A DNA stretch of 64,000 nt, from sequence record PP400779; one strand, written 5' to 3'. Below, one piece after another: positions 27,401 through 48,956 of this stretch. The notes beneath the pieces were generated by a model. That model did no database searches, was not told the origin of the DNA, and saw only the letters and a list, made by a program, of their open reading frames with translations. A program made the translations under genes and the position numbers. Origin of the DNA: Escherichia phage JM17. Position 1 is the first letter of the stretch. Each line of letters begins with the position of its first letter.

Positions 27401-27874
27401 ATGTTATTATCAGGCGCAAAATATAAAGAAGAAAAACAAAAATTTTATGATGCACAGAATGGTAAGTGTCCTATTTGCCACCGTGAATTAGACCCTGATG
27501 TTCAAGGTAACCATCTTGACCACGACCACGAATTAAACGGGCCAAAAGCAGGTAGAGTTCGTGGGTTACTCTGTAATCTGTGCAACGCAGCAGAAGGTCA
27601 AATGAAGCATAAGTTCAACCGTTCCGGTCTTAAAGGACGTGATGTCGACTACCTCGAATGGCTTGAAGCTCTTCTTGTTTATTTGAAACAAGATTATTCT
27701 GATAATAATATCCATCCTAATTTTGTTCCAGACAAAACTAAAGAGTTCTCAAGACTAGGTAAAGAGGAAATGATGGCTGAGATGCTTCAAAGAGGATTTG
27801 AATATAATGAATCTGACACCAAAACACAGTTAATAACTTCATTTAAGAAGCAGCTTAGAAAGAGTTTAAAATGA
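27401..27874 (+). CDS. 49: endonuclease VII (Holliday junction resolvase, gp49)
   Basis: 157 aa; CPICHREL...HLDHDHE...CNLCN zinc/HNH-like motifs. Confidence 0.9.
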   Translation: MLLSGAKYKEEKQKFYDAQNGKCPICHRELDPDVQGNHLDHDHELNGPKAGRVRGLLCNLCNAAEGQMKHKFNRSGLKGRDVDYLEWLEALLVYLKQDYSDNNIHPNFVPDKTKEFSRLGKEEMMAEMLQRGFEYNESDTKTQLITSFKKQLRKSLK

Positions 27875-28692
27875 ATGTAGTATATAAACTATCATTTATT
27901 AGTAGAATTAATGCTAAAACCCCGCCATATTATTATATTGGAAGTAAAACCAATTGCACTTTTGACGGAACGAATATTATTGATAAAAATGGTAAATTTT
28001 ATTATTCGTCTTCGTCATCTTCCGAATTTCAAAAAGCTCTGTTGAAAGAAACACCGAAAGTTGAAATATTATATTTTCAATTAGTCGGAGATGAACAAAT
28101 AACTAGCATTGAAGCTGAATTTCAAAAGAATATAGAAAAAGATATATGGAATAAAGAGTATTTTAATTTAGCATATGCTAATGGTCAATTTACAACGTAT
28201 GGTGTTTCTCCTTCTAAAGAAACTAGAGAAAAGCAATCAATAACCATGATTAAAAGAAATCGTAATAAAGGTAAAAATCATGGATTTTATGGAAAGCATC
28301 ATACTAATTTAGCCAGAAAGAAAATATCAGAAGCTTCTAAAAAATACTGGAAAGAAAATCCACATCATGGATTTTCGCACACAAAGGAAGCTAAAATTAA
28401 AATTGGAATTTCATCTTCTATCAGGCATAAAGGAAGTGGAAATCCGATGTACGGCGTAAAACCTTGGAAAACTCCTAGAGCAATTAAATCTGGTACTTAT
28501 ATATTATGGTTAAAATACGCAGAAATTTTATATGATTATTTAGGTCCGGATTTTAAAAGTAAATCATCTATTTTTGCGGAGTTAAATTTACCGAAATTTA
28601 GAATTGATAATTTCATCAAAAGGTTTAAAATGGGTTGGAACCCATATTTAGACGAAGAATTTCAAAAGGATAAATTAGAATTATGTCTTTAG
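27871..28692 (+). mobile_element. free-standing GIY-YIG-type homing endonuclease gene
   Basis: VYKLSFI...YYYIGSKTN catalytic motif; NUMOD3-like repeats GKNHGFYGKHH and GSGNPMYGVKPW; AT-rich. Confidence 0.55.
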
Positions 28693-30500
28693 AGAAAGAT
28701 GTTTTAAATTTTATTTCAAATAAAGATAAAGAATTAAATACCGAAAATGCCAACAAAGATTCTCGTGTCTTTCCAACAAAAAGAGATTTAATGGCCGGTA
28801 TTGTTTCTAAACATATCGCTTGTAGTATTCTTCCGAGCCATATTGTAAATGCTCATAATGTCGGATTAATTCATTTTCACGATTTAGATTACAGTATATC
28901 ATTGCCTTTTACTAATTGCTGTTTAGTAGATTTAAAAGGAATGCTTGAGAACGGATTTAAGCTTGGTAATGCACAGATTGAAACTCCTAAATCAATTGGC
29001 GTTGCTACTGCAATTATGGCACAAATTACTGCACAGGTTGCTTCTCACCAATATGGCGGAACGACTTTTGCTAATGTAGATAAAGTACTTTCTCCTTATG
29101 TTAAACGCACCTATGCAAAACATATTGAGGATGCAGAAAAATGGCAAATCGCCGATGCGTTGAATTATGCTCAATCCAAAACAGAAAAAGATGTCTATGA
29201 CGCATTTCAAGCTTATGAGTATGAAGTAAATACTCTTTTTAGCTCAAACGGTCAAACTCCTTTTGTTACTATAACATTTGGAACAGGAACTGACTGGACT
29301 GAACGAATGATTCAGAAAGCAATTCTGAAAAATCGTATTAAAGGCCTTGGTCGTGATGGAATAACTCCTATTTTCCCTAAGCTTGTTATGTTCGTTGAAG
29401 AAGGCGTTAATCTTTATAAAGACGATCCGAATTACGACATTAAGCAACTTGCTTTAGAGTGCGCAAGCAAAAGGATGTATCCTGATATTATTTCAGCTAA
29501 GAATAATAAAGCTATCACTGGTTCATCTGTTCCTGTTTCTCCAATGGGTTGTCGTAGTTTCTTGAGTGCATGGAAAGATTCGACTGGTAATGAAATTCTT
29601 GATGGACGTAATAATCTTGGTGTTGTAACACTGAATCTTCCTCGTATTGCGTTAGATTCTTATATTGGAACACAGTTCAATGAACAGAAATTTGTTGAGC
29701 TATTTAACGAACGAATGGACCTGTGTTTTGAAGCTTTGATGTGTAGAATTAGTTCCTTAAAAGGAGTTAAAGCGACTGTTGCTCCTATTCTTTACCAAGA
29801 AGGTGCATTTGGGGTTCGTCTTAAACCTGATGACGACATAATTGAGTTATTTAAAAACGGTAGAAGTTCAGTGTCCCTAGGATACATTGGTATTCACGAA
29901 TTGAATATTCTTGTCGGTCGTGATATTGGGCAAGAAATTTTAACTAAAATGAATGCTCATCTTAAACAGTGGACTGAAAGAACCGGATTTGCTTTTAGTT
30001 TATATTCTACTCCTGCTGAAAACCTTTGTTATCGCTTCTGTAAACTTGATACAGAAAAATATGGAAGTGTAAAGGATGTCACTGATAAAGGCTGGTACAC
30101 TAACAGTTTCCATGTTTCAGTAGAAGAAAATATTACTCCGTTTGAAAAGATTTCTCGTGAAGCGCCATATCATTTCATTGCGACAGGTGGTCACATTTCT
30201 TATGTTGAACTTCCTGATATGAAAAATAACTTAAAAGGTCTTGAGGCCGTATGGGATTATGCTGCACAACATTTAGATTATTTTGGCGTTAATATGCCAG
30301 TAGATAAATGTTTTACATGCGGAAGTACCCATGAAATGACTCCTACTGAAAACGGATTTGTTTGTTCAGTTTGTGGAGAAAGTGATCCTAAAAAGATGAA
30401 CACCATAAGAAGAACATGCGGTTATTTGGGAAATCCGAACGAACGAGGATTTAATCTCGGTAAAAATAAAGAAATCATGCATAGGGTTAAACACCAATGA
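28683..30500 (+). CDS. nrdD: anaerobic ribonucleoside-triphosphate reductase (class III, NrdD)
   Basis: 605 aa; C-terminal glycyl radical motif RRTCGYLG; Cys-rich zinc site; uninterrupted (no intron). Confidence 0.95.
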   Translation: MSLEKDVLNFISNKDKELNTENANKDSRVFPTKRDLMAGIVSKHIACSILPSHIVNAHNVGLIHFHDLDYSISLPFTNCCLVDLKGMLENGFKLGNAQIETPKSIGVATAIMAQITAQVASHQYGGTTFANVDKVLSPYVKRTYAKHIEDAEKWQIADALNYAQSKTEKDVYDAFQAYEYEVNTLFSSNGQTPFVTITFGTGTDWTERMIQKAILKNRIKGLGRDGITPIFPKLVMFVEEGVNLYKDDPNYDIKQLALECASKRMYPDIISAKNNKAITGSSVPVSPMGCRSFLSAWKDSTGNEILDGRNNLGVVTLNLPRIALDSYIGTQFNEQKFVELFNERMDLCFEALMCRISSLKGVKATVAPILYQEGAFGVRLKPDDDIIELFKNGRSSVSLGYIGIHELNILVGRDIGQEILTKMNAHLKQWTERTGFAFSLYSTPAENLCYRFCKLDTEKYGSVKDVTDKGWYTNSFHVSVEENITPFEKISREAPYHFIATGGHISYVELPDMKNNLKGLEAVWDYAAQHLDYFGVNMPVDKCFTCGSTHEMTPTENGFVCSVCGESDPKKMNTIRRTCGYLGNPNERGFNLGKNKEIMHRVKHQ

Positions 30501-30967
30501 ATTATGATAGATTTTATCCTTGCGATTTTGTGAATGGCCCTGGTTGCAGGGTCGTTCTTTTCGTTACAGGTTGTTTGCATAAATGTGAAGGGTGTTATAA
30601 TAAATCAACATGGAATGCTAGAAATGGTATTCCATTCACTGGTGAAACACTAGAACAATTAATTGAATGCTTGAATAATGATTATATAGAAGGATTGACT
30701 ATAACCGGAGGAGACCCTCTCTATCCTGACAACCGAGATGTTATTCATTGCATTGCTCAAACAGTAAAAAATCTTTATCCCAATAAAAGCATTTGGTTGT
30801 GGACAGGATATAAGTTTGAAGATATTAAACAACTAGAAATGCTTAAATATGTTGATGTTATTATTGATGGGAAGTATGAGAAAAATCTTCCGACTAAAAA
30901 GCTGTGGCGAGGATCAGATAATCAGCGACTTTGGTCAAATACCGATGGGGTGTGGAAACATGATTAA
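30497..30967 (+). CDS. nrdG: anaerobic RNR activating enzyme (radical SAM, NrdG)
   Basis: radical-SAM cysteine cluster in GCLHKCEGCYN; ATGA-coupled to nrdD. Confidence 0.9.
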   Translation: MNYDRFYPCDFVNGPGCRVVLFVTGCLHKCEGCYNKSTWNARNGIPFTGETLEQLIECLNNDYIEGLTITGGDPLYPDNRDVIHCIAQTVKNLYPNKSIWLWTGYKFEDIKQLEMLKYVDVIIDGKYEKNLPTKKLWRGSDNQRLWSNTDGVWKHD

Positions 30968-31077
30968 ATTGAATTACATTATGGATACTATAAATGATAT
31001 GATTTTTCGTTTTGGTCCAGAATTTTATTCGCAATATAGTTTAGTGCTTATCAATGCTTAGTTAATTAAGGGCAAAT

Positions 31078-31293
31078 ATGTATAAATTTCGTAAAGGTTT
31101 AGCTGATTTTCTTACAACTGTAACGTTCTTTTTGTTTATGGCAGTTGGAGCTATTTTTCTTATTCCTTTTACTGGTGTATTTTTCGTGATTAGTTTAATT
31201 TCTCCAGAAAAGGGTTTATCCTCCAGCGAATTCAATGAACGTTTGGACAAAATTACTAATAAACTGAATTCTGTTCTTGATAAAAAGGCTTAA
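31078..31293 (+). CDS. small membrane protein
   Basis: two TM helices. Confidence 0.4.
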   Translation: MYKFRKGLADFLTTVTFFLFMAVGAIFLIPFTGVFFVISLISPEKGLSSSEFNERLDKITNKLNSVLDKKA

Positions 31294-31295
31294 TT

Positions 31296-31613
31296 ATGAT
31301 TAGTTTTGAGCGGTATGTAGTAGAGAGTTGGAATGGTTTTGATATGTTCGGTAATGACTATTATTTCTATGAATGTAGTCTGAACCCAAGCTTCTGGGCT
31401 GGACGTGAACAAGACCTCGAAGAAATCAACGCTCGTGCCGATTTGTTAGGTGAACTGCCTACGGTTTATTTTACCTTTGATGAATCCGGCTTCGTTATCC
31501 AGGTTTATTTTCCTGAAGAAAACTCTGGTGAGGATTCTGTTAATCCTCCTTATTGGGCTTACCAAGGAATTATTTCTCGTGGAACAAAACTCGAACTTAA
31601 AGAACAAGATTGA
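31296..31613 (+). CDS. hypothetical acidic protein
   Basis: 105 aa. Confidence 0.4.
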   Translation: MISFERYVVESWNGFDMFGNDYYFYECSLNPSFWAGREQDLEEINARADLLGELPTVYFTFDESGFVIQVYFPEENSGEDSVNPPYWAYQGIISRGTKLELKEQD

Positions 31614-31902
31614 AATTTATGGCATCCCTGAAGAAGTTGGACGTTGTCCAGGATGTTATACTGTTACAAAACTTTTAAAGGAGCTCAATGCTCCTTATAC
31701 ATTTTATAAAGTCCTCACTAATAATGGTAAGATTGAATATGACCGTCCTTTAATCGTATCTCTTGCTAAACGTGCAGGATTCACTTCACTTAATATTCGT
31801 TATCCTGTCATATTTTTAAATGATAAGAAACAAAAGAATATTGCAGAGTTTAAAAAGTCCTTGATTTCATTAGGATATGACTCTGATATCATAGAAGATT
31901 GA
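31579..31902 (+). CDS. glutaredoxin-like redoxin (NrdH-like)
   Basis: CPGC active site after KIEIYG; only in-frame ATG is 31450 inside the upstream gene, so a GTG start at 31579 is proposed (uncertain). Confidence 0.45.
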   Translation: MEQNSNLKNKIEIYGIPEEVGRCPGCYTVTKLLKELNAPYTFYKVLTNNGKIEYDRPLIVSLAKRAGFTSLNIRYPVIFLNDKKQKNIAEFKKSLISLGYDSDIIED

Positions 31903-32069
31903 CCAGGTGCCGCCTGGTCTTCTTTATCTCATTTCTAATATAATCCATTGGAATCTTCACTTCACTATCTCCTTGTGCCCCTCTCAAATCAAAAATATTT
32001 TCATAAAACCAGTTTACATCCTCGATAGATATGTTAAGATTAACACCATCTACTATAGAGGAAAATAAA

Positions 32070-32252
32070 ATGACAATTGAAGATAAAGAAATTAAGGTTG
32101 ACCAGTACTATTCGGTCAACGGTAATGCAGTACAGATAACCAAAGTTTCAAGCCTGGATGTTTGGTACCGTTCAATCAAATATCCAGAAATTGGTGAAAT
32201 GATTTGTGACCGTGGTATCTTCTGTTCAATTGCGAAGGAAATTAAGTCATGA
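32070..32252 (+). CDS. small hypothetical protein
   Basis: ATG after AGAGGAAAA. Confidence 0.35.
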   Translation: MTIEDKEIKVDQYYSVNGNAVQITKVSSLDVWYRSIKYPEIGEMICDRGIFCSIAKEIKS

Positions 32253-32497
32253 TTAGTTTAGATTCAAAGAAAGTTGTTCTAACCCTTAAAGTTAATGACG
32301 AACGTCCGGTATTCGTTACCATTTCCGATTTGCATGTTGAAATTGCTAATGACGTTCGTACTTATCAAGCAAATAAAACTCATTGGGATTATATCCCGAT
32401 GTTGACGCTTACTCAGCGTTTAGAATCAATCGGTCTTAAAGACCTTTCAGTAAGTGAAGTGAATTTTATCAAACGCGTTGTATCAATCAACCTCTGA
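32249..32497 (+). CDS. hypothetical protein
   Basis: ATGA overlap. Confidence 0.4.
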   Translation: MISLDSKKVVLTLKVNDERPVFVTISDLHVEIANDVRTYQANKTHWDYIPMLTLTQRLESIGLKDLSVSEVNFIKRVVSINL

Positions 32498-32504
32498 GGT
32501 ACTT

Positions 32505-32798
32505 ATGGGTAAAACATATCGTCGTAAAGATTTGAAAGTTCGCGATTACGACTATTTTGGTAAGCGTAAAGCTCCTGACGGTGTTAGCCACAAAGACATG
32601 GTTGAAAACATTTTCCGCTCAGATAAATGGAAACGTATGAAAGGCATTGATTCTGAAGTCAAGAATGAAATGAATCGACAACTCCGCAAAGAAGTTCGTA
32701 AGTTGAAAAAAGATGTTTACAGTAAAGAAGAGTATGATTATAATACTTCTCATACTGAAGCCAAACGTAAAGCTAACGAATGTTATCGTTACAGTTGA
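32505..32798 (+). CDS. hypothetical basic protein
   Basis: ATG after GAGG. Confidence 0.4.
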   Translation: MGKTYRRKDLKVRDYDYFGKRKAPDGVSHKDMVENIFRSDKWKRMKGIDSEVKNEMNRQLRKEVRKLKKDVYSKEEYDYNTSHTEAKRKANECYRYS

Positions 32799-32936
32799 GG
32801 AAATTATGAATATCAAACGAATGCTTTTTAAGCAGGGATTATATACTTTAAATGTTAATCCAAAGGGTGATACAACTAAATGGTCTGTAAATGACTGGAT
32901 TAAGTTCATCGATGAAAATGGGGCGTGGAACACAAA

Positions 32937-33137
32937 ATGAATCCTGAAAATATTGTGTCATGGCAACTTCGTGAAGAACGTGCCGAATTCTTTGCCAATA
33001 TGAAACTCAACGGCGTTGAGGATGAAGACTTCTTACGCTGGTTCTGGATTTACAAATACAAAGAATGCCAGTACGCTGTACTACTGACTTGTGCAGTTAT
33101 GTACGAAGGCTGGAAAGGCGCTAAAAAGTTCGGATAA
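32937..33137 (+). CDS. hypothetical protein
   Basis: ATGA overlap. Confidence 0.4.
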   Translation: MNPENIVSWQLREERAEFFANMKLNGVEDEDFLRWFWIYKYKECQYAVLLTCAVMYEGWKGAKKFG

Positions 33138-33139
33138 CG

Positions 33140-33188
33140 ATTTACAAACTCTTGAGAGCAGAGTATAATGCTCTCATTGGATAATAAA
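33140..33188 (+). repeat. PeSL-like promoter cassette, copy B of the duplicated ~48-bp element
   Basis: identical to 5912-5960 except one base (CTCTCATTGG versus CTCTCGTTGG). Confidence 0.6.
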
Positions 33189-33206
33189 ATAACCGAGGAA
33201 AATAAT

Positions 33207-33539
33207 ATGTCTACTAAAATCAAAAACGTAGTTAATTCTTTCGCTTTCGATAAAGTTGTTGCTCTTCTGGAATCCGGCAATATTGTTACTCCTCAAGTTC
33301 TTGACGCATGGGAATTCCGTCTTTATGAAATCATGCAAAAACACGACCAGAAAATTGGACGTAATTCTATTCGCGAAATTCTAGTACAATATATTCTTTC
33401 TGAATTTGACGTTGCTGCATTTGGTGTTGAATCTAAAGCTTATCAGAAACATGAAATCTCTGAAAAGACTATCCGTCGTATGAAAAATCAGCGTAAGAAA
33501 AAATTCGTTGACCTGAAAATTGTTAAGGCGGCAAAATGA
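33207..33539 (+). CDS. hypothetical protein
   Basis: ATG after GAGGAAAA. Confidence 0.45.
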   Translation: MSTKIKNVVNSFAFDKVVALLESGNIVTPQVLDAWEFRLYEIMQKHDQKIGRNSIREILVQYILSEFDVAAFGVESKAYQKHEISEKTIRRMKNQRKKKFVDLKIVKAAK

Positions 33540-33763
33540 GCGTATTAACAGAAACCTTTATTAATGACCTGCGTCTAGCTGGTTACGAAGTTGGTACAAA
33601 TAGCCTAGGTCTTCCTCAGATTGAAGGTCCTGGATTTATTCTAGAATACGAATTCAAACAATGGTGGTTATATGCTACGGTTGACGATGCGTTAAATATT
33701 GATTTTGTTGACCAATTTGATTCGTTGGATGCCGCCTTATTTGCAGCAAAGGAAATAGAATGA
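33536..33763 (+). CDS. hypothetical acidic protein
   Basis: ATGA overlap. Confidence 0.4.
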   Translation: MSVLTETFINDLRLAGYEVGTNSLGLPQIEGPGFILEYEFKQWWLYATVDDALNIDFVDQFDSLDAALFAAKEIE

Positions 33764-33853
33764 AACTATCTTGAATCGCTATAACCGAAGAAAAGTTTGG
33801 TGAATTTTAAGTCGATAACTTTATGAAAGTTACGTATCTTTGATAGTATCTCG

Positions 33854-33890
33854 TGCTTTAAGATAGGTCTCTAAATATTATGATATAATA
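33854..33890 (+). promoter_or_regulatory. candidate middle-type promoter (MotA-box-like TGCTTTA plus TATTAT/TATAAT) inside palindrome ATAGGTCT/AGACCTAT upstream of gene 55
   Basis: TGCTTTA at 33854-33860; -10 candidates 33876-33890; inverted repeat flanks. Confidence 0.35.
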
Positions 33891-33918
33891 GACCTATGAA
33901 TTGAGCCAAGAGGTACTT

Positions 33919-34476
33919 ATGACTGAACAAAAACCTAAAAATAACTATGTGAATAATAAAGAGCTTCTCGCCGCTATAATCGAGTGGAAAAAGGAGCTCT
34001 TAAATAATAAAGACCCAAACAAAATTATTCGTCAGAATGATACCATCGGTTTAGCAATTATGCTTATCGCCGAAGGCCTGTCCAAACGTTTCAACTTTTC
34101 AGGATATACCCAGTCTTGGAAGCAGGAGATGATTGCAGATGGGATTGAAGCCTCTATTAAGGGACTTCATAATTTCGACGAAACTAAGTACAATAACCCA
34201 CATGCATACATAACTCGAGCTTGTTTTAATGCTTTTGTCCAACGTATCAAAAAAGAACGTAAGGAAGTTGCAAAGAAATATAGTTACTTCGTTCATAATG
34301 TCTATGACAGTCATGACGATGATATGGTAGCGTTGGTAGATGAAACGTTTATTCAAGACATCTACGATAAAATGACGCATTATGAAGAATCCGCTTATAA
34401 AGCTCCTGGGGCTGAAAAGAAGGAAGTTGTTAGCGATTCGCCTAGTTTGGATTTTTTATATGAGGATGACAATTGA
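33919..34476 (+). CDS. 55: late-transcription sigma factor gp55
   Basis: 185 aa; ...[49 protein letters not shown]... matches T4 gp55 as recalled. Confidence 0.9.
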
Positions 34477-34675
34477 CATCTCTAACTACTTAGAAGAACC
34501 TTTTGACGAAGCAATCCCTTATTTGGTAAAACTGTTGGGTCGTGAATTTAAAATTAATTTTGACATCGACCCTTTGAACCCACATGACGTGTCATTTTCG
34601 ATAAATGGGACTCCGGTTGAGTATGAGTTCTGTATTGAAGAGGGTGGACGTTTTTATTTTAATTTAATGAGATAA
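34466..34675 (+). CDS. hypothetical protein (in the slot where T4 carries alpha-gt)
   Basis: start overlaps the 3' end of gene 55. Confidence 0.35.
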
Positions 34676-34676
34676 T

Positions 34677-35000
34677 ATGACTACCGAGATTATTGAAAAT
34701 AAAGAAGCAGAAGATGCAGTAGCTAAAATGCTACAAGAAATCCAAAAGAAAAATGAAGCTGAAGCACGTAAAAAATCAGAAAAGATTCTTAAAAAGAATC
34801 GTTTTGAACTAAACCGTCTTTATGCTCATGCTCAAGAAGCAGCAATTCAAAACAACTTCGAAGCTTACGAATATGCTATTAAGAAATCTCGGGATATTCT
34901 ACGACAACCATATAATGACAAGTTAATTAAAATCCAGTGGGTTACTACTCGTCAGGCTATTGAGGACATCATTAATGGCGCTAGTTCAAACAAAGTTTAA
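34677..35000 (+). CDS. hypothetical coiled-coil protein
   Basis: 107 aa. Confidence 0.4.
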   Translation: MTTEIIENKEAEDAVAKMLQEIQKKNEAEARKKSEKILKKNRFELNRLYAHAQEAAIQNNFEAYEYAIKKSRDILRQPYNDKLIKIQWVTTRQAIEDIINGASSNKV

Positions 35001-35220
35001 ACGTCTGAAGCTGAACGCAGGGTTCACCCTTAAATTGGGAGGTCCTCTTTGTGTTAAAATTTCTGAAAAGGAATATCACGACGGTTCTATTACAGAAATT
35101 TGTCCGCCTATTGTAAAGGCAGACCCAAAACAACTCGTGTGGGCTGATTCATTTCAAGTTAAGAAATGGTGGAAACGATGAGAGAAATCGGTTTAGGTAT
35201 TTTCTGAGAGATGATTATGC

Positions 35221-35394
35221 ATGACGAACGACCTGACCTCTGAAAATTTCGATAAAATCCGTAAAGGCAAAGCAGAAAGAATGAGACGTTTTAAAGAGTC
35301 TTACGATAAAGCTAAAGCCGAAGGAACTATTACATACAAGCCCATTCGATTTAAAAGTTCAAATGAGCCTCTGTACGGTGTACTATGTGGATAG
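35221..35394 (+). CDS. small hypothetical basic protein (57 aa)
   Basis: not in track; followed directly by a terminator. Confidence 0.3.
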   Translation: MTNDLTSENFDKIRKGKAERMRRFKESYDKAKAEGTITYKPIRFKSSNEPLYGVLCG

Positions 35395-38903: not shown

Positions 38904-39320
38904 ATGTTTACTACTGTTAAAGGTTTCACTGCTGCTGATCTGAAAGTTACTTCTATCCGTACTGACGCTAACCCACATAACCATAATCGTGTTCGTAAAG
39001 CATGGGTCCTGCATTGTGATGAAGCAAGTGCTAAAAAACTCCAATCTTTGCCACAAGAAACTCGTTTTATGATTTATGGTTTTATTGATAACGATGTATC
39101 TGATATGTGGATTCATCTGATGCGTAAGCACTATAAAGATTCTATCGAAGCAGGTGCTAAAATCGTTCTTGATAAAGACGGTTCTGAGCGTCTGGAAGAT
39201 TTCTACTGTGTTGATGCCGACGAACAACTAATTGCAGCTGGCGAAATTGTTGCTTCTAAAATTCCAGAATATATTGAATCACTGCCTGAAGCTATTAAAA
39301 AGCAGATGGTTGCTGCTTGA
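38904..39320 (+). CDS. rpbA: RpbA-like protein (assigned by position)
   Basis: 138 aa between 46 and 45 as in T4. Confidence 0.4.
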   Translation: MFTTVKGFTAADLKVTSIRTDANPHNHNRVRKAWVLHCDEASAKKLQSLPQETRFMIYGFIDNDVSDMWIHLMRKHYKDSIEAGAKIVLDKDGSERLEDFYCVDADEQLIAAGEIVASKIPEYIESLPEAIKKQMVAA

Positions 39321-39850
39321 TAATTATGAATTTAATATATCTTATAACCTTTTATAATCGTGAGATTAAAAATGAATACCCGTGTTATTATATAGGTTCT
39401 AAAGTTTCGTGTCATTTTAATGGAAAGGATATTATTGAAGATTCTACCGGTAAAATATATACCGGTAGTGTTAATTCCTCGTATTCTCCTTTATATAACA
39501 GATTAATAGACCAAGGCGAATATTCTGTAAAAATTTTAGGCGAAACCACATTAGACCCTAGAAGAATAGAAAGACTATTCCAACTCAATGTTAAAGCCGT
39601 TTCAAATGAAAAATATTTTAATAAGGCTTATGCTAACGAGAAGTCTAGAATATCAGCTAAAGGATATGCACCGTATAAAAATTTAAAAACAGGCAAAATA
39701 GTAAAACTTTCTAAAAACGAAATAAACGAAGATTACGTCGGTGTTAGAAAAAATTGCAAATTGTCGGAGAATCATTTAAACGCAATTAGAGAATTTCAAA
39801 AAAACATATTGGACCAAAGAACGAAGAGAGAAAGTTTCTATTCGTTCTAA
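39317..39850 (+). mobile_element. GIY-YIG-like homing endonuclease gene, N-terminal (catalytic) part; possibly split
   Basis: IYLITFYNREIKNEYPCYYIGSK paralogous to ORF 27871; ends 4 nt before the next ORF. Confidence 0.45.
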
Positions 39851-39854
39851 AAAA

Positions 39855-40217
39855 ATGTTTAACGATAGAGATTTTGCTTTAAAATTTAAAGATATAATGA
39901 ATTCTCCTAATGTTAAAGATAAAATAAAAATATCTAAAACATTGTATTGGTCTAAACCTGAAAATAGAGCAAAGGCCTCTATCGCAGCTTCGAAAAGAAA
40001 TGCAACCAAAGAATTTAAGGATAAATTCAGAAAATCTAAAGCTAGAGGTACATGGATATTTCATGAACAAAAATTAAAGGAATTGTGGATTGCTTTAGGA
40101 AAACCAAGTTATATTACATTTAGAAAACATGCAATTCAGCATGGTTTTAATGATGAATCATACCAAGGTGCTATCCGGTCTTGGACAAATTATTATGCTA
40201 ATAGGAAACCTAAATGA
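39855..40217 (+). mobile_element. C-terminal basic (DNA-binding-like) part of the split homing endonuclease
   Basis: Lys/Arg-rich 120 aa immediately downstream; together the two ORFs equal one HEG in size. Confidence 0.4.
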
Positions 40218-40900
40218 AACTTAGCCGTGAAACCGTAAATATTCTGAAAAACTTCGCTTCTATTAACTCTGGCATTCTGCTGAGTCAAGGTAAATTTATT
40301 ATGACTCGTGCAGTTAATGGCACCACTTATGCGGAAGCAAATATCTCTGATGAAATTGATTTTGACGTAGCACTTTATGATTTGAATAGCTTCTTAAGCA
40401 TTTTGAGTCTAGTGTCTGATGATGCTGAAATTTCAATGCACACTGATGGCAATATTAAAATTGCAGATACACGTTCCACAGTTTATTGGCCTGCCGCTGA
40501 CAAGAGCACCATTGTTTTTCCTAATAAGCCAATTCAATTCCCAGTGGCTTCTGTGATTACTGAAATTAAAGCTGAAGACCTTCAACAATTGCTTCGAGTT
40601 TCACGTGGACTTCAGATTGATACAATTGCTATTACAAATAAAGATGGTAAAATTGTTATCAATGGCTATAATAAAGTTGAAGATTCCGGACTAACTCGTC
40701 CTAAGTATTCTTTGACTCTTACTGATTATGACGGTTCTAATAACTTTAACTTCGTAATCAATATGGCTAATATGAAAATCCAGCCAGGTAACTATAAAGT
40801 AATGTTGTGGGGAGCTGGTGATAAAGTTGCAGCTAAGTTTGAAAGCTCTCAAGTAAGTTATGTTATTGCGATGGAAGCCGATTCTACTCACGACTTCTAA
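40214..40900 (+). CDS. 45: sliding clamp gp45
   Basis: 228 aa; matches T4/RB69-type gp45 as recalled. Confidence 0.9.
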   Translation: MKLSRETVNILKNFASINSGILLSQGKFIMTRAVNGTTYAEANISDEIDFDVALYDLNSFLSILSLVSDDAEISMHTDGNIKIADTRSTVYWPAADKSTIVFPNKPIQFPVASVITEIKAEDLQQLLRVSRGLQIDTIAITNKDGKIVINGYNKVEDSGLTRPKYSLTLTDYDGSNNFNFVINMANMKIQPGNYKVMLWGAGDKVAAKFESSQVSYVIAMEADSTHDF

Positions 40901-40975
40901 GTCAAAGCTTTACGTTTATTGTGATACGATTATGGAGGAGAAATCCTCCAGTTTAATGATAATGAGGAAAATTAC

Positions 40976-41938
40976 ATGATTACTATCAATTCCAAAGAAC
41001 ACATTCTAGAACAGAAATATCGTCCTTCTTCCATTGACGAATGTATTCTGCCTGCGTATGACCATGAAACATTCAAGTCTTTAGTATCTAAAGGAAAACT
41101 TCCTCATATTATTTTGCACTCTCCATCTCCTGGTACCGGTAAAACAACCGTAGCAAAAGCATTATGTAATGATATCAATGCCGAAATGATGTTCGTCAAC
41201 GGTTCTGATTGTAAGATTGATTTTGTGCGTGGTCCATTAACTGCATTCGCTCGTTCAGTCTCAATGGAAGGCAAGCCTAAAGTTATTGTTATTGATGAAT
41301 TTGACCGTAGTGGCCTCGCCGAATCACAACGGCACCTTCGTACATTCATGGAAGAATTCTCTAGTAACTGTTCTATTATTATTACTGCCAACAACATCGA
41401 TGGAATTATCGAACCGTTACGTAGTCGTTGTCGAGTTATCGAATTCGGACGTCCAACCGAAGAAGATAAAATCTCGATGATGAAGAAAATGATTCATCGT
41501 ATGGTTGAAATCTGTAAGAATGAAAATATCGAAATCGCGGATATGAAAGTTGTTGCAGCTCTGGTTAAAAAGAACTTCCCAGACTTTCGTCGTACAATTG
41601 GTCAATTAGACCAGTACTCGTCTAAAGGTGTTCTTGATGCGGGTATTTTGTCTATCGTAACTAATGACCGTGGCACAGTCTCTGATGTTATCGAAGCAAT
41701 GAAGAACAAAGATATCAAACAGCTTCGTGCATTAGCTCCAAAATATGCCGCTGATTATTCATGGTTCATCGATAAATTAGTTTCAGAATGTTATGACCAA
41801 GTTGCACCTGGTAAAAGTATTATTTCGCTTTACGAAATTGCAGGTGAAAATAATAAGTTTCATGGACTAGCTAGTAATATTGAATTACATGTTATGTATA
41901 TGCTTCTTCAACTGACTTGTGAATTGACTTGGAAATAA
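40976..41938 (+). CDS. 44: clamp loader large subunit gp44 (AAA+)
   Basis: Walker [11 protein letters not shown], Walker B VIVIDEFD, sensor motifs. Confidence 0.9.
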
Positions 41939-41939
41939 T

Positions 41940-42503
41940 ATGAACTTATTTGATGATGACGTCCAGCTTAACGAGCACCAAATTGCATGGAAGTCTAACG
42001 ACGCTGATGCGATTCAAAAATGTGCTGACATGTTTAAAGAAAAACCTGAGAATGAATTCTTTAAAATCATTAATGCTATTAATGAAAAGAAATCTATGTC
42101 AATTGCTCAGGTCGACTACTCAAAATTTATGGTTGAGAACTCATTATCCCAGTTCCCAGAATGTATGCCAGCCGTTTACATGATGAACTTAGTCGGTTCT
42201 GAATTAAGTGATGAAGCGCACTTCAACTATATGATGGCGGCAATTCCACGTGGTCGTCGATTCTCTAAATGGGCTAAACTAGTCGAAGACACTTCAGAGT
42301 TACTAGTTATCAAACTGTTGATGAAACATTACACAATCAACATGAATGATGCTACCGAGTATAAGCGGCTCCTTGAAAAAAATAACAAGTTGCCAATAGT
42401 CCTTAAAGAACTGAAGGCCATGGTCACTGATGAGTTTCTCAAAGAAGTTACAAAAAATGTGAAAGAACAAAAACAATTTAAAAAATTAGCATTGGAATGG
42501 TAA
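41940..42503 (+). CDS. 62: clamp loader small subunit gp62
   Basis: 187 aa directly after gene 44. Confidence 0.75.
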
Positions 42504-42505
42504 AA

Positions 42506-42874
42506 ATGATCGAAATTAAATTGAAGAACCCCGAAGATTTTCTGAAAGTCAAAGAGACTCTGACCCGTATGGGCATCGCTAATAACAAGGATAAAGTTCT
42601 TTATCAGTCCTGTCATATCCTCCAAAAGCAAGGTAAATATTACATCGTCCACTTTAAAGAAATGCTGCGTATGGACGGACGTCAGGTTGATATTGATGGT
42701 GAAGACTATCAGCGACGTGATTCGATTGCTCAGTTGCTTGAAGACTGGGGCTTGATTGTTATTGAAGACTCTGCTCGTGAAGATCTGTTTGGCCTGACTA
42801 ATAACTTCCGTGTTATCTCTTTTAAACAGAAAGATGACTGGACTTTGAAAGCAAAATATACAATTGGTAATTAA
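42506..42874 (+). CDS. regA: translational repressor RegA
   Basis: 122 aa; MIEIKLKNPEDFLKVKETLTRMGIANNKDKVLYQSCHILQK... matches T4 RegA as recalled. Confidence 0.8.
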   Translation: MIEIKLKNPEDFLKVKETLTRMGIANNKDKVLYQSCHILQKQGKYYIVHFKEMLRMDGRQVDIDGEDYQRRDSIAQLLEDWGLIVIEDSAREDLFGLTNNFRVISFKQKDDWTLKAKYTIGN

Positions 42875-42955
42875 AGCAATGGGACTTCGGTCCCATTTGG
42901 AGTATAATAAGTTCATCAACAAACAAAAGACAATAACTCGTCTAAAGGAAATTAA

Positions 42956-45667
42956 ATGAAAGAATTTTACTTAACGGTTGAACAGATTGGTGATTCAATT
43001 TTTGAACGTTACATCGATTCTAATGGCCGTGAACGTACTCGTGAAGTAGAATATAAACCATCACTGTTTGCTCATTGTCCAGAAAGTCAGGCTACGAAAT
43101 ATTTCGATATCTACGGTAAGCCGTGTACTCGTAAGTTGTTCGCTAATATGCGTGATGCCTCCCAATGGATTAAACGCATGGAAGATATCGGACTTGAAGC
43201 ACTTGGCATGGACGATTTCAAATTGGCGTATTTGTCTGACACTTATAACTATGAAATCAAATACGACCATACAAAAATTCGTGTGGCTAACTTCGACATC
43301 GAAGTAACATCTCCGGATGGGTTCCCTGAGCCATCACAAGCAAAACATCCGATTGATGCTATCACCCATTATGACTCAATTGACGACAGGTTCTACGTAT
43401 TTGATCTATTGAATTCTCCATATGGTAATGTAGAAGAATGGTCTATTGAAATCGCTGCTAAGCTTCAAGAACAAGGCGGTGATGAAGTTCCATCTGAAAT
43501 TATCGATAAAATCATTTATATGCCGTTCGATAACGAAAAAGAATTGTTGATGGAATATCTCAACTTCTGGCAACAGAAAACTCCTGTCATTTTGACTGGA
43601 TGGAACGTTGAGTCATTCGATATTCCATATGTGTATAACCGAATCAAGAATATTTTTGGCGAATCTACTGCGAAACGTTTATCACCACATCGTAAAACTC
43701 GTGTTAAAGTTATCGAAAACATGTATGGTTCTCGTGAAATCATTACATTGTTCGGTATCTCTGTTCTTGATTACATTGACCTTTACAAAAAATTCTCTTT
43801 TACCAATCAACCGTCGTATTCTCTGGATTACATTTCAGAATTTGAATTGAACGTTGGTAAACTGAAATATGATGGCCCTATTTCTAAGCTTCGTGAAAGC
43901 AATCACCAACGATATATTTCTTATAACATTATCGACGTGTATCGTGTATTGCAAATTGATGCTAAGCGTCAGTTCATCAACTTGAGCTTGGACATGGGTT
44001 ATTATGCTAAGATACAGATTCAATCTGTGTTTAGCCCAATTAAAACATGGGATGCTATTATTTTTAATAGCCTTAAAGAGCAGAACAAGGTGATTCCACA
44101 AGGTCGTTCTCACCCGGTTCAACCTTATCCCGGCGCTTTTGTTAAGGAACCTATTCCAAATCGATACAAATATGTAATGAGTTTCGACCTTACATCTCTG
44201 TATCCAAGTATTATTCGCCAAGTGAATATTAGCCCGGAAACAATAGCAGGAACGTTTAAAGTAGCTCCATTGCATGATTATATTAACGCAATCGCTGAAC
44301 GTCCTTCAGATGTGTACAGTTGCTCTCCTAACGGCATGATGTATTATAAAGACCGTGATGGTGTAGTTCCAACTGAAATCACTAAGGTCTTTAATCAACG
44401 TAAAGAACATAAAGGTTACATGCTTGCAGCTCAACGTAATGGTGAAATAATTAAAGAGGCATTGCATAATCCTAATCTTTCTGTTGACGAACCATTAGAT
44501 GTTGATTATCGTTTCGACTTCAGTGATGAGATTAAAGAAAAGATTAAAAAGTTGTCTGCTAAATCTCTTAATGAAATGTTGTTTAGAGCTCAACGTACTG
44601 AAGTTGCAGGTATGACCGCACAAATTAACCGTAAATTGCTCATCAACTCACTTTATGGTGCACTTGGAAACGTTTGGTTCCGTTATTATGATTTGCGTAA
44701 TGCTACTGCAATCACAACATTCGGGCAAATGGCTTTACAGTGGATTGAACGTAAAGTTAATGAATATCTGAATGAAGTTTGTGGTACAGAAGGTGAAGCT
44801 TTCGTTCTTTATGGTGATACGGACTCTATTTACGTATCTGCTGATAAAATTATCGATAAGGTTGGTGAATCTAAATTCCGTGATACTAACCATTGGGTAG
44901 ACTTCTTAGATAAGTTTGCACGTGAACGTATGGAACCTGCTATTGATAGAGGTTTCCGTGAAATGTGCGAATACATGAACAATAAACAACACTTAATGTT
45001 CATGGACCGAGAAGCTATCGCTGGGCCTCCGCTTGGTTCTAAAGGTATTGGCGGATTTTGGACTGGTAAGAAACGTTATGCATTAAACGTGTGGGATATG
45101 GAAGGTACTCGTTACGCTGAGCCTAAACTCAAAATCATGGGTCTAGAAACTCAGAAATCTTCGACCCCTAAAGCAGTACAGAAAGCTCTTAAAGAATGTA
45201 TTCGTCGTATGCTTCAAGAAGGTGAAGAATCATTACAAGAATATTTTAAAGAGTTTGAAAAAGAATTCCGTCAATTGAATTATATTAGCATCGCGTCGGT
45301 ATCTTCTGCGAATAACATTGCTAAATATGACGTCGGTGGATTCCCTGGTCCTAAATGCCCGTTCCATATTCGTGGAATTCTGACATATAACCGAGCTATC
45401 AAAGGTAATATCGATGCACCACAAGTTGTAGAAGGTGAAAAAGTATATGTTCTGCCTTTACGTGAAGGAAACCCATTCGGTGATAAATGTATCGCATGGC
45501 CTTCTGGTACTGAAATCACAGATTTAATTAAAGACGATGTACTTCATTGGATGGACTACACTGTTCTCCTTGAGAAGACATTTATTAAACCACTTGAAGG
45601 ATTCACATCAGCAGCGAAACTCGATTATGAGAAGAAAGCATCTCTGTTCGATATGTTCGATTTTTGA
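42956..45667 (+). CDS. 43: DNA polymerase (family B, gp43)
   Basis: 903 aa; exonuclease motifs FDIEV and YNIIDV; polymerase motifs DLTSLYPSII, KLLINSLYGALG, YGDTDS; from memory resembles the RB69-type polymerase. Confidence 0.97.
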   Translation: MKEFYLTVEQIGDSIFERYIDSNGRERTREVEYKPSLFAHCPESQATKYFDIYGKPCTRKLFANMRDASQWIKRMEDIGLEALGMDDFKLAYLSDTYNYEIKYDHTKIRVANFDIEVTSPDGFPEPSQAKHPIDAITHYDSIDDRFYVFDLLNSPYGNVEEWSIEIAAKLQEQGGDEVPSEIIDKIIYMPFDNEKELLMEYLNFWQQKTPVILTGWNVESFDIPYVYNRIKNIFGESTAKRLSPHRKTRVKVIENMYGSREIITLFGISVLDYIDLYKKFSFTNQPSYSLDYISEFELNVGKLKYDGPISKLRESNHQRYISYNIIDVYRVLQIDAKRQFINLSLDMGYYAKIQIQSVFSPIKTWDAIIFNSLKEQNKVIPQGRSHPVQPYPGAFVKEPIPNRYKYVMSFDLTSLYPSIIRQVNISPETIAGTFKVAPLHDYINAIAERPSDVYSCSPNGMMYYKDRDGVVPTEITKVFNQRKEHKGYMLAAQRNGEIIKEALHNPNLSVDEPLDVDYRFDFSDEIKEKIKKLSAKSLNEMLFRAQRTEVAGMTAQINRKLLINSLYGALGNVWFRYYDLRNATAITTFGQMALQWIERKVNEYLNEVCGTEGEAFVLYGDTDSIYVSADKIIDKVGESKFRDTNHWVDFLDKFARERMEPAIDRGFREMCEYMNNKQHLMFMDREAIAGPPLGSKGIGGFWTGKKRYALNVWDMEGTRYAEPKLKIMGLETQKSSTPKAVQKALKECIRRMLQEGEESLQEYFKEFEKEFRQLNYISIASVSSANNIAKYDVGGFPGPKCPFHIRGILTYNRAIKGNIDAPQVVEGEKVYVLPLREGNPFGDKCIAWPSGTEITDLIKDDVLHWMDYTVLLEKTFIKPLEGFTSAAKLDYEKKASLFDMFDF

Positions 45668-45707
45668 TATAATGTCATGGACGGTAAACTAATTAAATGA
45701 GAGAAAT

Positions 45708-46343
45708 ATGAAAACTACTCCTATTACTATCGCTATTGACGCAATCATAAAACAAGCTTCTTCTTTGGCCGCTATGGCCAAAGTAATTAGTCAAAACCCT
45801 GCTCGTTATAATGCTATTCTAGAAACTCTTCGACGCCCTGGACTTAGTAATTATGAAAGCCGGGTAATTATTACAGGTGTTGGTAAGAATGCTAATATCG
45901 CAACTAAAGCTTCCGAGACATTTGCTTCACTAGGTATTCCTAGCATGTATTTGAACACTGGGCATTATTCTCACGGTGATGCAGGATTCATTGCGCCTAA
46001 TGATGTGTTGATTCATATTAGTCGTTCTGGTAAGACTGAAGAAATGATAGGTGTTGCTAAACATCTTCGTATGATTCGTCCTCAGGTTAAACAGATTCTG
46101 TTACATTGTAACCCAGACATTCCACAAGAATACGAAGCTCTTTTTGATTATACGTTCTGTACTGGCATCGCGGTAGAGGTTGATGAGAATTCTCTGGCTC
46201 CGACTATGTCCACTACATTGTTGTTAGCGCTTATCGATACGTTTGCTATCAACCTTTCGTCTGAACGTGGATTTACCTCTAATGATTTCCTTAAGTTCCA
46301 TCCAGGCGGTGCACTAGGTGCCATGTTACGAGGCGAACAATGA
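45708..46343 (+). CDS. SIS-domain sugar-phosphate isomerase (KdsD/KpsF/GmhA-like)
   Basis: 211 aa; SIS motifs ITGVGKNANIATK and ISRSGKTEE. Confidence 0.55.
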   Translation: MKTTPITIAIDAIIKQASSLAAMAKVISQNPARYNAILETLRRPGLSNYESRVIITGVGKNANIATKASETFASLGIPSMYLNTGHYSHGDAGFIAPNDVLIHISRSGKTEEMIGVAKHLRMIRPQVKQILLHCNPDIPQEYEALFDYTFCTGIAVEVDENSLAPTMSTTLLLALIDTFAINLSSERGFTSNDFLKFHPGGALGAMLRGEQ

Positions 46344-46483
46344 AAGCAATAACAATAGGACTTTTACTATTGATGCTTGTCATGACTATCTACTGGAGCT
46401 TAACGGCTCCGGTAATGATTCCAACACTTGTAATTGGATGGATTATGATTGGACTACAAGCAAAGTATGAATGCTTTAACTAG
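46340..46483 (+). CDS. small hydrophobic membrane peptide (47 aa)
   Basis: ATGA overlap with the SIS gene stop; not in track. Confidence 0.3.
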   Translation: MKAITIGLLLLMLVMTIYWSLTAPVMIPTLVIGWIMIGLQAKYECFN

Positions 46484-46524
46484 AATAGTGTACAATACTC
46501 CTACTTACCAATGAGGACTTTAAC

Positions 46525-48210
46525 ATGAAAAAAGCTGTTATTCTTGGTGCTGGACTGGCAACTCGTTTGTATCCAATAACGCATCATATTCCTAAGGTGC
46601 TTGTTAACTATAAACAAGATACTATTCTGAGCAATTTGTATACAATTTATTCTGACCTTGGCGCAGATGAAATTATTGTAGTAGTTCATTCAAAATTTGC
46701 TGAAACTGTTCGAGCTTATTGTGAACAAGAAGGGTTCAATGTGACTATTCGTACAGTTGATGAAGCGTATGGTTCTGCTTATGCTCTTGCTAAATTACAC
46801 AAAGATTTAGACGGCCATAATGTAATTGTTAACTGGTGTGATATTATTCCTGATTTTGGTTCATGGTCTTGGAATGTTAACGCAATCTATGTTAAGGGTG
46901 ACGAATGTCGATATAATTTCGACGGTGAAAATATCACTAACGTAGGTTCAACAGGTGGTAATGTTGTAGGAATTTATCAGTTCAAAGACTGGGAATTCTA
47001 TATGGGTTCTACTGATGAGGAAATTCATGAATACTGCAAAGGACGTGATTTCGTAGAATTCCTTTACGGCAGCGCATTCAATAAATCAGAGCTTATGAAT
47101 CTAATTGATTTAGGTGATATGCCTAAACTTGAAAAAGCTCATGAAGTTCGTGAACTTAATCGTAGTTTTAATGCAGTTGAAATTGGTGAAGAAACTGTAA
47201 CTAAATTCGCATTAACCGAACAGGGTCGAGCTCTTCAGAAAGATGAGATTTCGTGGTATCTTAAAGTGAAATCAGATTCAGTTCCTCAGTTAGTTTCTGT
47301 TAATGAAAATAACTTTGAAATGGAACGCATTAAAGGTAAGCCTGCATTTGAATATATTAAATCCAAATCAAGTCTTGCTCGTCCACAAATTGTTGATGCA
47401 ATTTTAGATGCACTGAAATTCAGCACAGACACTTATTTTGTAAGTCCTGAAACTGTTCGTCGTGATTTCACTAAAGAATTCTATACGAAAGTTATTGATC
47501 GTTGTGAAAGCATTCAACCATTGATTGATTCATTTGGTAAAATCACACATGTGAACTACACTAAGATTGGACGTCTGAAGCCAATGCTGAAACAAGCTTT
47601 AGAACACCTCATTCGTTATCATAACCGTTCTCAGGGACAGTACTCTGTTATTCACGGTGACCCGAACTTCAGTAATACTATGATTACTGATAATGGCGAA
47701 GTCAAGTTTATCGACCCTCGTGGATATTTTGGTGAAACCAAGATTTACGGGCCAAAATTGTACGATGAAGCTAAAGTGCTTTACGCTGTTTCAGGTTATG
47801 ATGAATTCAATGCTAATCCGACTTGGGGACAGTTTACTATTGATGAAACAACTTGTAATGTGACTATTAACATCAATCCATTAGTTTACAAATATGGAAA
47901 GATGAGTTCGTTTAACGAGTATCATCATTTGGCAGTGGCAATTATCTGGATTGCATTAGGTGGTTATTTCAAGAATAATCCACTTAAAGCGGTAGCCGCA
48001 TATTATAAAGGTATGGAACTTCTGACTAAGCAATTACGTAACATGGGCCGTGTACTTCAGGACGGCTCTATTAGTTATGACGTAGCAGAACCTGTAACGG
48101 CTACTCTGATTACAAAAAATCCTGGTAAATGGGTACTAACTGATAAAGAAACTGGTGTTTCCTATCGTCCAATCGGTGGCGATATCACTCATCAATGGGA
48201 ACGAATTTGA
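46525..48210 (+). CDS. bifunctional sugar-1-phosphate nucleotidyltransferase / sugar kinase (N-terminal NDP-sugar pyrophosphorylase, C-terminal APH/choline-kinase-like kinase)
   Basis: 561 aa; N-terminal GAGLATRLYP..PK signature; C-terminal Brenner motif HGDPNFSNTMITDNGEVKFIDPRGYFG. Confidence 0.6.
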   Translation: MKKAVILGAGLATRLYPITHHIPKVLVNYKQDTILSNLYTIYSDLGADEIIVVVHSKFAETVRAYCEQEGFNVTIRTVDEAYGSAYALAKLHKDLDGHNVIVNWCDIIPDFGSWSWNVNAIYVKGDECRYNFDGENITNVGSTGGNVVGIYQFKDWEFYMGSTDEEIHEYCKGRDFVEFLYGSAFNKSELMNLIDLGDMPKLEKAHEVRELNRSFNAVEIGEETVTKFALTEQGRALQKDEISWYLKVKSDSVPQLVSVNENNFEMERIKGKPAFEYIKSKSSLARPQIVDAILDALKFSTDTYFVSPETVRRDFTKEFYTKVIDRCESIQPLIDSFGKITHVNYTKIGRLKPMLKQALEHLIRYHNRSQGQYSVIHGDPNFSNTMITDNGEVKFIDPRGYFGETKIYGPKLYDEAKVLYAVSGYDEFNANPTWGQFTIDETTCNVTININPLVYKYGKMSSFNEYHHLAVAIIWIALGGYFKNNPLKAVAAYYKGMELLTKQLRNMGRVLQDGSISYDVAEPVTATLITKNPGKWVLTDKETGVSYRPIGGDITHQWERI

Positions 48211-48956
48211 TACATTATCTCTACAAAACTACTAATCTTATAAACGGTAAAGTTTATTTAGGAATGCACTCGGCTGAAGAAGCCGAGCCTTTAGATTTAT
48301 ATAAAGGTTCTGGTAAATTATATAAAAAGGCTGAAAGGAAATATGGGAAGGAAAATTTTCTTAAAGAAATCATTTCCTACCATAGCTCAAGAGAAGAATT
48401 AAAAATAGCTGAAAAGGCTCTAATAACATTAGACATAGTTAAAGACCCAAATTATTACAATCTTAAAACTGGTGGCGAAGGTGGTTCTGACGGGTTATCC
48501 CAAAGGTCCAAGGATAAAATTTCTAAGGCAAATAAAGGACGTTTAGTTGGTGATAAAAACCCAAGATGGGGTAAAACTTTGTCAGCTGAATCTATAGCTA
48601 GGGGTAAAGAAAAGCACAGGAGGTATGGTAAACCTGCATTACATGGTCTAAAGATTAATGTAGATGGCAAATATTATGAATCCTGTCGGGAAGCGGCTAA
48701 AGATTTAGGTATATCTTCTGCCACGATTCAAAAGAGAGTAAAATCGCCTAAATATCTTAATTATCGGTATCAGGACGAAAGCAAAAATGCTCACAAGTCT
48801 CAAAAATTTGTTAAAATAAACGAAAATTACTATGAATCTCTTAGGATAGCTGAAAAGAAAACGGGTATTCCTAGAAAGCGTATAGCTGATAATATTAAAA
48901 ATTCTATTGAAGGATATTGCTATGAAACCATTACATCTTTGCGTGGACGTCGATGA
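48195..48956 (+). mobile_element. GIY-YIG homing endonuclease gene (Seg-like)
   Basis: IHYLYKTTNLINGKVYLGMHS; NUMOD3-like repeats; overlaps both neighbours (16 nt upstream, 35 nt downstream). Confidence 0.55.

Follow-up and report, generated by a model that had tools for sequence, protein, structure and literature searches.

The genome of Escherichia phage JM17 (sequence record PP400779) carries three open reading frames (ORFs) that are best explained as free-standing homing endonuclease genes (HEGs) of the GIY-YIG class that have entered a Mosigvirus genome at exact gene junctions and home together with linked flanking sequence (probability about 0.85). They lie within the 64,000 nucleotide (nt) stretch analysed here, referred to as the window. 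HEG1 is found between gene 49 and nrdD, HEG2 between rpbA and gene 45, and HEG3 immediately 5' of a HAD phosphatase gene in the cytosine-arabinosylation cluster (Table 1). An earlier note made from the sequence had placed three such genes at these junctions. ORFs are present at the positions that it gave, and its names for the neighbours (49, nrdD, rpbA, 45 and HAD) agree with the annotation of close relatives. When two domain profiles were compared with every ORF of at least 60 amino acids (aa) in the window, only these three were of the GIY-YIG type, and a PHROG scan of ten additional large ORFs in the window found no further HEGs. That the three genes are mobile is supported by their sporadic distribution, by precise empty sites, and by patches of altered sequence linked to them in the flanking genes.

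Table 1. Coordinates in the window of the three HEGs and of the sequence features associated with them
Feature	Position	Strand	Description
HEG1	27871..28692	+	Intact SegG-like free-standing GIY-YIG gene at the 49|nrdD junction, encoding 273 aa with NUMOD3 repeats
HEG1-linked foreign nrdD 5' allele	28693..29060	+	Co-conversion tract, presumed target region
HEG2 5' ORF	39326..39850	+	174 aa, SegG-like GIY-YIG catalytic domain and linker, ending prematurely after the frameshift
HEG2 A7 run (A6 in intact alleles)	39798..39804	+	+1 frameshift lesion, from alignment with five relatives
HEG2 3' ORF	39855..40217	+	120 aa, presumed DNA-binding helices from the C-terminal region of the ancestral enzyme
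HEG2-linked gene 45 start patch	40214..40240	+	MKLSRETVN versus MKLSKDTIA, presumed altered target site
HEG3	48195..48956	+	Intact I-TevI/Seg-type GIY-YIG gene, 253 aa, between the nucleotidyltransferase/kinase and HAD phosphatase genes
Replaced HAD 5' end	48922..48948	+	MKPLHLCVD instead of MHRVENMLNLCFD, overlapping the 3' end of HEG3

The distribution of the HEGs was determined among 50,697 phage records, of which 49 carry HEG1, nine carry HEG2 and three carry HEG3. Phage PhAPEC2 has exact empty sites with intact junctions at all three positions, which is the outcome of a comparison with genomes lacking the insertions that the earlier note had called for. All three genes are present in GenBank at 99–100% identity, labelled either 'homing endonuclease' or 'hypothetical protein', and literature searches found no paper on HEG1, HEG2 or HEG3. 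The region from 27000 to 49500 is matched over at least 80% of its length by 142 phage records, the best being phage AV111 at 97% identity and 97% coverage, and none covers more than 97%. The combination of all three HEGs appears to be unique in the collection, because no record covers more than this and because the three records with HEG3 do not include phage FL18, which has the HEG2 allele of the window.

The window comes from a Mosigvirus (RB69-like, T-even-type) genome. The gene order in close relatives is 49, nrdD, nrdG, followed further along by 55, 47, 46, 45.2, rpbA, 45, 44, 62, regA and 43. After gene 43 comes the arabinosylation cluster, with genes for an arabinose-5-phosphate isomerase, a bifunctional nucleotidyltransferase/kinase, the HAD phosphatase, a peptidase-U32-like protein and a ThyA-like protein; the roles of the RB69 homologues of these genes have been described (PMC13326640). 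Between 27000 and 50000 the T4 late-promoter motif TATAAATA has a sole copy, at 27364, upstream of gene 49.

HEG1 is confirmed at the position given in the earlier note. Its start codon overlaps the stop codon of gene 49 in an ATGA, and the nrdD start at 28683 lies inside HEG1, giving a 10 nt overlap, so that the new nrdD start is supplied by HEG1 itself, 10 nt before its stop. In the HEG-less PhAPEC2, gene 49 and nrdD overlap via an ATGA, and HEG1 begins at exactly that ATG. The 49 copies of HEG1 are 97–99.8% identical and are found in both Mosigvirus and Tequatrovirus. Comparison of the window with the Tequatrovirus fPS-2 gives 97% identity in HEG1 and 95–99% over the adjoining ~370 nt of nrdD, but only 69–80% in the body of gene 49. 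Against the HEG-less Mosigvirus PhAPEC2, this 5' tract of nrdD is merely 64–83% identical. At sites that differ between PhAPEC2 and fPS-2 the window agrees with fPS-2 at about 99 of 107 up to ~29050, and is Mosigvirus-like beyond. The nrdD 5' allele is present at 90% identity or more in 49 records. Another 6 records match it at 80–90% and 1,223 at 60–80%, nearly all of these others being at about 79% or lower. HEG1 and its nrdD flank are read here as a cassette that would have been spread by homing, with a putative cut by the enzyme at some point in the 5' part of nrdD. Over its last ~110 nt (27760–27870), gene 49 is 96% identical to fPS-2 and about 92–99% identical to PhAPEC2. Because these nucleotides are similar in all three phages, there is a hint that the cassette may have entered Tequatrovirus from a Mosigvirus-like donor.

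Other HEGs are annotated near nrdD in Yersinia phage fPS-2. A second homing endonuclease, apparently intron-borne, splits nrdD (L008:4586-5362), and a third follows nrdD (L008:6752 onward), giving three HEGs within 4 kilobases (kb) around this gene.

In the HEG1 protein Pfam detects a NUMOD3 motif (E = 5e-8), and PHROG 7504 'homing endonuclease' is matched at E = 1e-33. With T4 SegG the protein shares 40% identity over its first 128 residues (E = 5e-27) and also the C-terminal tail. In an alignment of 24 relatives, residues Y5, Y22, G24, S25, K26, Y44, S47, E81 and N99 are invariant. These contain the Tyr / Tyr-x-Gly / Glu / Asn pattern of GIY-YIG enzymes, with Y22-I-G24 corresponding to YIG, and R12, between the two motifs, is nearly invariant.

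HEG2 replaces the spacer between rpbA and gene 45, which is 42 nt long in PhAPEC2. The last codons of its 3' ORF provide the ribosome-binding site of gene 45 and an ATGA overlap with it. Codons 3 to 9 of gene 45 differ from those of PhAPEC2 at about 12 positions (LSRETVN versus LSKDTIA), with near identity afterwards, and one of the changes is of a Ser codon from TCT to AGC, which requires three base changes. The full 77 nt gene 45 allele is found in exactly the nine records that carry HEG2 (9/9 linkage), whereas the other Mosigviruses align from nt 27 only. In Tequatroviruses the rpbA|45 site is likewise filled by orthologues of HEG2, with 59% aa identity. Phage vB_EcoM_VR26 has an annotated 'putative DNA endonuclease' beside the start of gene 45, and perhaps more than one HEG family makes use of this junction.

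The earlier note had described HEG2 as starting at 39317 and as being interrupted by a stop codon. The presence of two ORFs is borne out, but neither of these details is correct. The start is the ATG at 39326 rather than the TTG at 39317, the relatives all beginning MNLIY or MNVVY, and the interruption is a +1 frameshift, in which a run of seven A residues (A7) in the window stands against A6 in the intact 296 aa allele of phage AV116. The two ORFs are in different frames, and the frame after the A7 run reaches a TAA at 39848–39850. Four other members of the HEG2 family are 292–296 aa long. The 5' ORF was correctly taken to hold the catalytic part, being SegG-like: it matches phrog_7504 (E = 2e-17), its catalytic domain is 31% identical to that of HEG1, and in a tblastn search of the phage collection it is 38.4% identical to T4 SegG over 136 aa (E = 2e-8). 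All of the family invariants are present (Y5, R12, Y22, G24, S25, K26, Y44, S47, E81 and N99). Conservation in the family is highest in the 3' ORF, which is modelled as helices only and gave no informative match in a fold search. Its description as DNA-binding is therefore presumed from the usual architecture of such enzymes.

Of the nine HEG2 copies in GenBank, five are apparently intact and four are broken by differing homopolymer changes. FL18 has the A7 in the first run and is identical to the window over the whole 901 nt; AV115 has A11 and G2285 has A6 in the second run; and AV111 has A4 in a third run. There are thus four independent homopolymer insertions or deletions among 10 sequences within the 0.89 kb of HEG2, and none in the 3 kb of its flanks, where three A6 runs are invariant at five loci. 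Since a single base in a homopolymer is the commonest type of sequencing error, since several of the other records differ solely in their HEG2 homopolymer lengths, and since the exact truncated product is recorded on two contigs only (one of them FL18), it could be argued that the A-run has been miscounted and that the phage truly has an intact 296 aa gene. Such an artefact of sequencing or assembly is unlikely. FL18 is an independent record of the same allele, random miscalling should not strike the HEG alone while leaving the A6 runs of its flanks unaltered, and the A11 variant, compared with A7, is too large a change for a typical miscall. HEG2 is instead most likely a recently inactivated copy with a presumed loss of activity, and recurrent decay of the HEG is the simplest reading of the several lesions.

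The A-runs of six or more in HEG2 begin at 39748, 39798 and 39849, at a spacing of 50 and 51 nt, which probably reflects a repeat of ~17 aa in a Lys-rich, NUMOD3-like linker. All three fall within 110 nt, and their density of 3.4 per kb compares with 0.95 for the window. Together with the four length variants among near-identical sequences, this raises the alternative of a reversible on/off contingency locus, or of transcriptional slippage that restores the frame, by which the phage population would retain the nuclease, which may also cut the phage's own genome, at a tolerably low level. Hypermutable homopolymer contingency loci have been described in T2 and T4 in a 2025 preprint (10.1101/2025.10.21.683753), the text of which makes no mention of homing endonucleases. 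A switch of this kind is very unlikely. Of the lesions, one affects an A5 run and another adds four bases, both of which resemble decay more, and the A-runs may just reflect Lys-rich DNA-binding repeats in an AT-rich gene. A run of A7 is also short for efficient slippage by RNA polymerase. Programmed -1 frameshifting at the in-phase heptamer A_AAA_AAC in the A7 run was considered and rejected, the intact frame being +1 with respect to the 5' ORF, and a shift of -1 soon leading to a stop. Decay by frameshift remains the preferred reading of the split gene.

Promoter-like sites around HEG2 show no excess, at 5 compared with a mean of 8.5 in shuffled sequence. Terminator-like sites number 3, compared with a shuffled mean of 0.9, and one of these is a perfect inverted repeat of 9 base pairs with a 7 nt loop at 39444–39468, within the coding sequence of the catalytic domain (CTACCGGTA-AAATATA-TACCGGTAG). 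This hairpin could have a role in RNA processing or regulation, or be due to chance. By the end of gene 46, phage G2285 has an extra ORF of 238 aa (L004:90-806, minus strand) that neither the window nor the AV phages have, and this may be another mobile insertion.

HEG3 interrupts the arabinosylation cluster. In the HEG-less AV111 and PhAPEC2 the end of the kinase/transferase gene, TAATG, runs directly into the HAD gene, and in the window ~742 nt (48207–48948) stand in for 42 nt of that arrangement. The HAD gene starts at an ATG at 48922, so the overlap with HEG3 is exactly 35 nt, as had been reported, and the HEG3 ORF stops inside the codons for HAD motif I. The DNA specific to HEG3 begins at 48207 with a TTG that overlaps the TGA of the upstream gene, and the homologue in Acinetobacter phage Ac42 is likewise annotated with a TTG start. 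For these reasons the ORF may extend in frame to the ATG at 48195 by chance only. The records that hold HEG3 are a20, BEU50 and NRG-P0074 only, with 100% protein identity.

The location of HEG3 inside the cluster, its overlap with the HAD gene, and the presence of a related HEG adjoining the orthologous HAD gene in a distant Acinetobacter phage would fit the suggestion that the flanking modification genes were themselves acquired recently by horizontal transfer. This is highly improbable, and the hint to that effect in the earlier note is not supported. The genes on either side of HEG3 are 99–100% identical to those of HEG-less Mosigviruses. The upstream nucleotidyltransferase/kinase gene and the downstream HAD and peptidase-U32 genes are 98–100% identical per 100 nt to those of the HEG-less PhAPEC2 up to the junctions, so the flanking genes were not recently imported, and the foreign DNA is confined to the ~742 nt of the insertion. 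The cluster is general in Mosigviruses, with the HAD protein present at 95% identity or more in over 150 records, and only three of them have HEG3.

The nearest non-identical homologue of HEG3, with 51% aa identity, is that of Ac42 and is directly upstream of the orthologous HAD gene. The HEG-containing loci of the window, a20 and Ac42 have TGC GTG GAC before HAD motif I, and four HEG-less phages have TTT GAT or ATA GAT at this position. This suggests that the HEG3 lineage may target the conserved motif-I region of the HAD phosphatase gene. Serratia phage X20 has a segB-like 'putative endodeoxyribonuclease' gene directly downstream of the orthologous HAD gene, before the peptidase-U32 gene (L014:1563-2201). 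The neighbourhood of the HAD gene therefore seems to be a recurrent spot for HEG insertion.

Assignment to the GIY-YIG class is most direct for HEG3. It matches I-TevI_DNA-bd, NUMOD1 and NUMOD3 in Pfam, phrog_314 (E = 3e-43) and the NCBIfam family TIGR01453 'group I intron endonuclease' (63.0 bits, cut-off 56.05), although the Pfam SegE_GIY-YIG score of 18.6 is below the cut-off of 25. When the PDB was searched with a profile of the N-terminal domain family of HEG3 from which I-TevI had been left out, the catalytic domain of I-TevI (1LN0/1MK0) was recovered at E = 3e-12. Residues Y10, Y21, G23, E73 and N89 are invariant in both family alignments and correspond to the GIY Tyr, the Tyr-x-Gly, the Glu and the Asn. 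The intact form of HEG2 has no match in Pfam and NCBIfam even at permissive thresholds.

Several observations weigh against the interpretation of all three as homing GIY-YIG enzymes. Neither HEG1 nor HEG2 matches Pfam GIY-YIG, even at E = 10, and the profile of their SegG-like family finds no GIY-YIG chain in the PDB, only spurious beta-propeller repeats. An hhalign comparison of this profile with a GIY-YIG alignment gives a probability of 44% and covers the Glu-Asn half only. No Arg of HEG3 or of the SegG-like domains aligns with the canonical catalytic one, R27 of I-TevI. In HEG3 and its two closest relatives there is a gap or Glu/Pro in place of R-x3-H, with 'D-x-Y-x-G-S-G' instead, in an alignment of which the I-TevI row was entered by hand. 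The target sites are placed by linked polymorphism only. The 49 records with the nrdD allele and the 49 with HEG1 are matched by count. The HAD alleles come from a small sample of 3 HEG-containing and 4 HEG-less loci, and the flanks of HEG2 and HEG3 are too close to those of relatives for longer co-conversion tracts to show. The catalytic domains of HEG1 and HEG2 do have the alpha/beta fold of GIY-YIG enzymes. With the PDB and hhalign searches negative or weak, the membership of HEG1 in the superfamily rests on this fold and on homology to SegG.

The patches linked to the HEGs, which are the ~370 nt of nrdD, the 26 nt of gene 45 and the HAD codons before motif I, are read as target sites that would have been altered or co-converted in homing. 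In a mixed infection each enzyme would cut the HEG-less allele of the gene immediately downstream. The predicted targets of these three uncharacterised enzymes are the nrdD 5' region for HEG1, the rpbA-45 spacer or else gene 45 within its first ~26 nt for HEG2, and the HAD motif-I codons, or those just before this catalytic motif, for HEG3. Recombinational repair from the HEG-containing genome would then copy the HEG together with a short flank bearing the altered site, which would presumably be immune to cleavage. The insertions are accommodated in the operons by replacement of the translation signals. HEG1 takes the old nrdD start, in the ATGA with gene 49, and gives a new one; HEG2 provides the ribosome-binding site and ATGA overlap of gene 45; and HEG3 equips the HAD gene with a new start codon and N-terminus. 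The change from A6 to A7 separates the nuclease domain of HEG2 from its C-terminal region, which fits a phase of decay once few empty sites remain.

Such tight integration with the translation signals of essential neighbours is also what might be seen if the ORFs were domesticated nuclease-like genes with a function for the phage, in regulation or in competitor exclusion only, and were not mobile elements. Marker exclusion by the Seg enzymes of T4 favours the carrier (PMC2988022) and is in keeping with this. Domestication can nevertheless be given only a very slight probability, since the patchy presence among near-identical genomes, the identical cassettes in two genera, and the frequency of frameshifted HEG2 copies are signatures of selfish elements. 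As free-standing GIY-YIG HEGs, the three genes are ordinary in kind: selfish HEGs are typical of T-even phages, and two of those found here are intact and one is recently frameshifted.

Free-standing HEGs are among the main causes of marker exclusion and of local mosaicism in the T-even phages, and the general understanding of homing endonuclease elements is unchanged by these three genes. The sharing of HEG1 and ~370 nt of nrdD between Mosigvirus and Tequatrovirus at 95–99% identity represents transfer between genera. RB69-type phages are reported not to recombine with T4 (PMC6024577). HEG3 lies inside a DNA-hypermodification cluster, and its enzyme presumably cuts arabinosylated DNA, which could aid the engineering of such phages. 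If it is true that HEG3 follows the HAD gene across subfamilies, homing would shuffle alleles of the hypermodification pathway between distant phages. It is doubtful, although worth considering, that at least one of two ideas is functionally true, namely that the HEG3 lineage is specialised on the sequence for motif I of the HAD sugar-phosphatase in cytosine-glycosylation clusters, across Tevenvirinae and Twarogvirinae, or that the A-runs of HEG2 are a dosage-setting switch.

Among known systems, HEG1 and HEG2 are most like SegG of T4, an active GIY-YIG endonuclease gene inserted at 32/59 that targets gene 32 (PMC2988022). They share all of the catalytic-domain invariants with SegG, and like it are promoter-less cassettes in the same orientation between essential replication genes; as with SegG, the neighbouring gene is the implied target and the flank is co-converted (PMC2988022). 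They differ in their insertion sites, 49|nrdD and rpbA|45. HEG1 has an inserted NUMOD3 region, while HEG2 has a longer and distinct C-terminal helical region without a database family and is frameshifted.

HEG3 resembles I-TevI of the T4 td intron and TIGR01453, with an N-terminal GIY-YIG domain, a NUMOD3 linker and a C-terminal helix-turn-helix DNA-binding region (PF20987, with weak similarity to 1i3j). Unlike I-TevI, it is free-standing rather than intron-encoded and lacks the Arg-x3-His of helix 1, having the Seg-type 'Y-x-G-S-G' instead. In addition, its 3' end overlaps the presumed target gene and supplies the new start codon of that gene. The closest non-identical relative, the annotated homing endonuclease gp079 of Ac42, aligns with HEG3 at 96% coverage and has the same position directly upstream of the orthologous HAD gene, with the same TGC GTG GAC before motif I. 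However, it belongs to another subfamily (Twarogvirinae), does not overlap the HAD gene, and is separated from the kinase/transferase gene by three small ORFs.

The state of HEG2 is comparable to that of I-TevIII, which is truncated in T4 and intact in RB3 (PMC2988022). In both cases an inactivated copy is found of a gene that is intact in sister phages. HEG2 has been broken by a frameshift of one base in a homopolymer, not by a large deletion, and several independent lesions coexist in the population.

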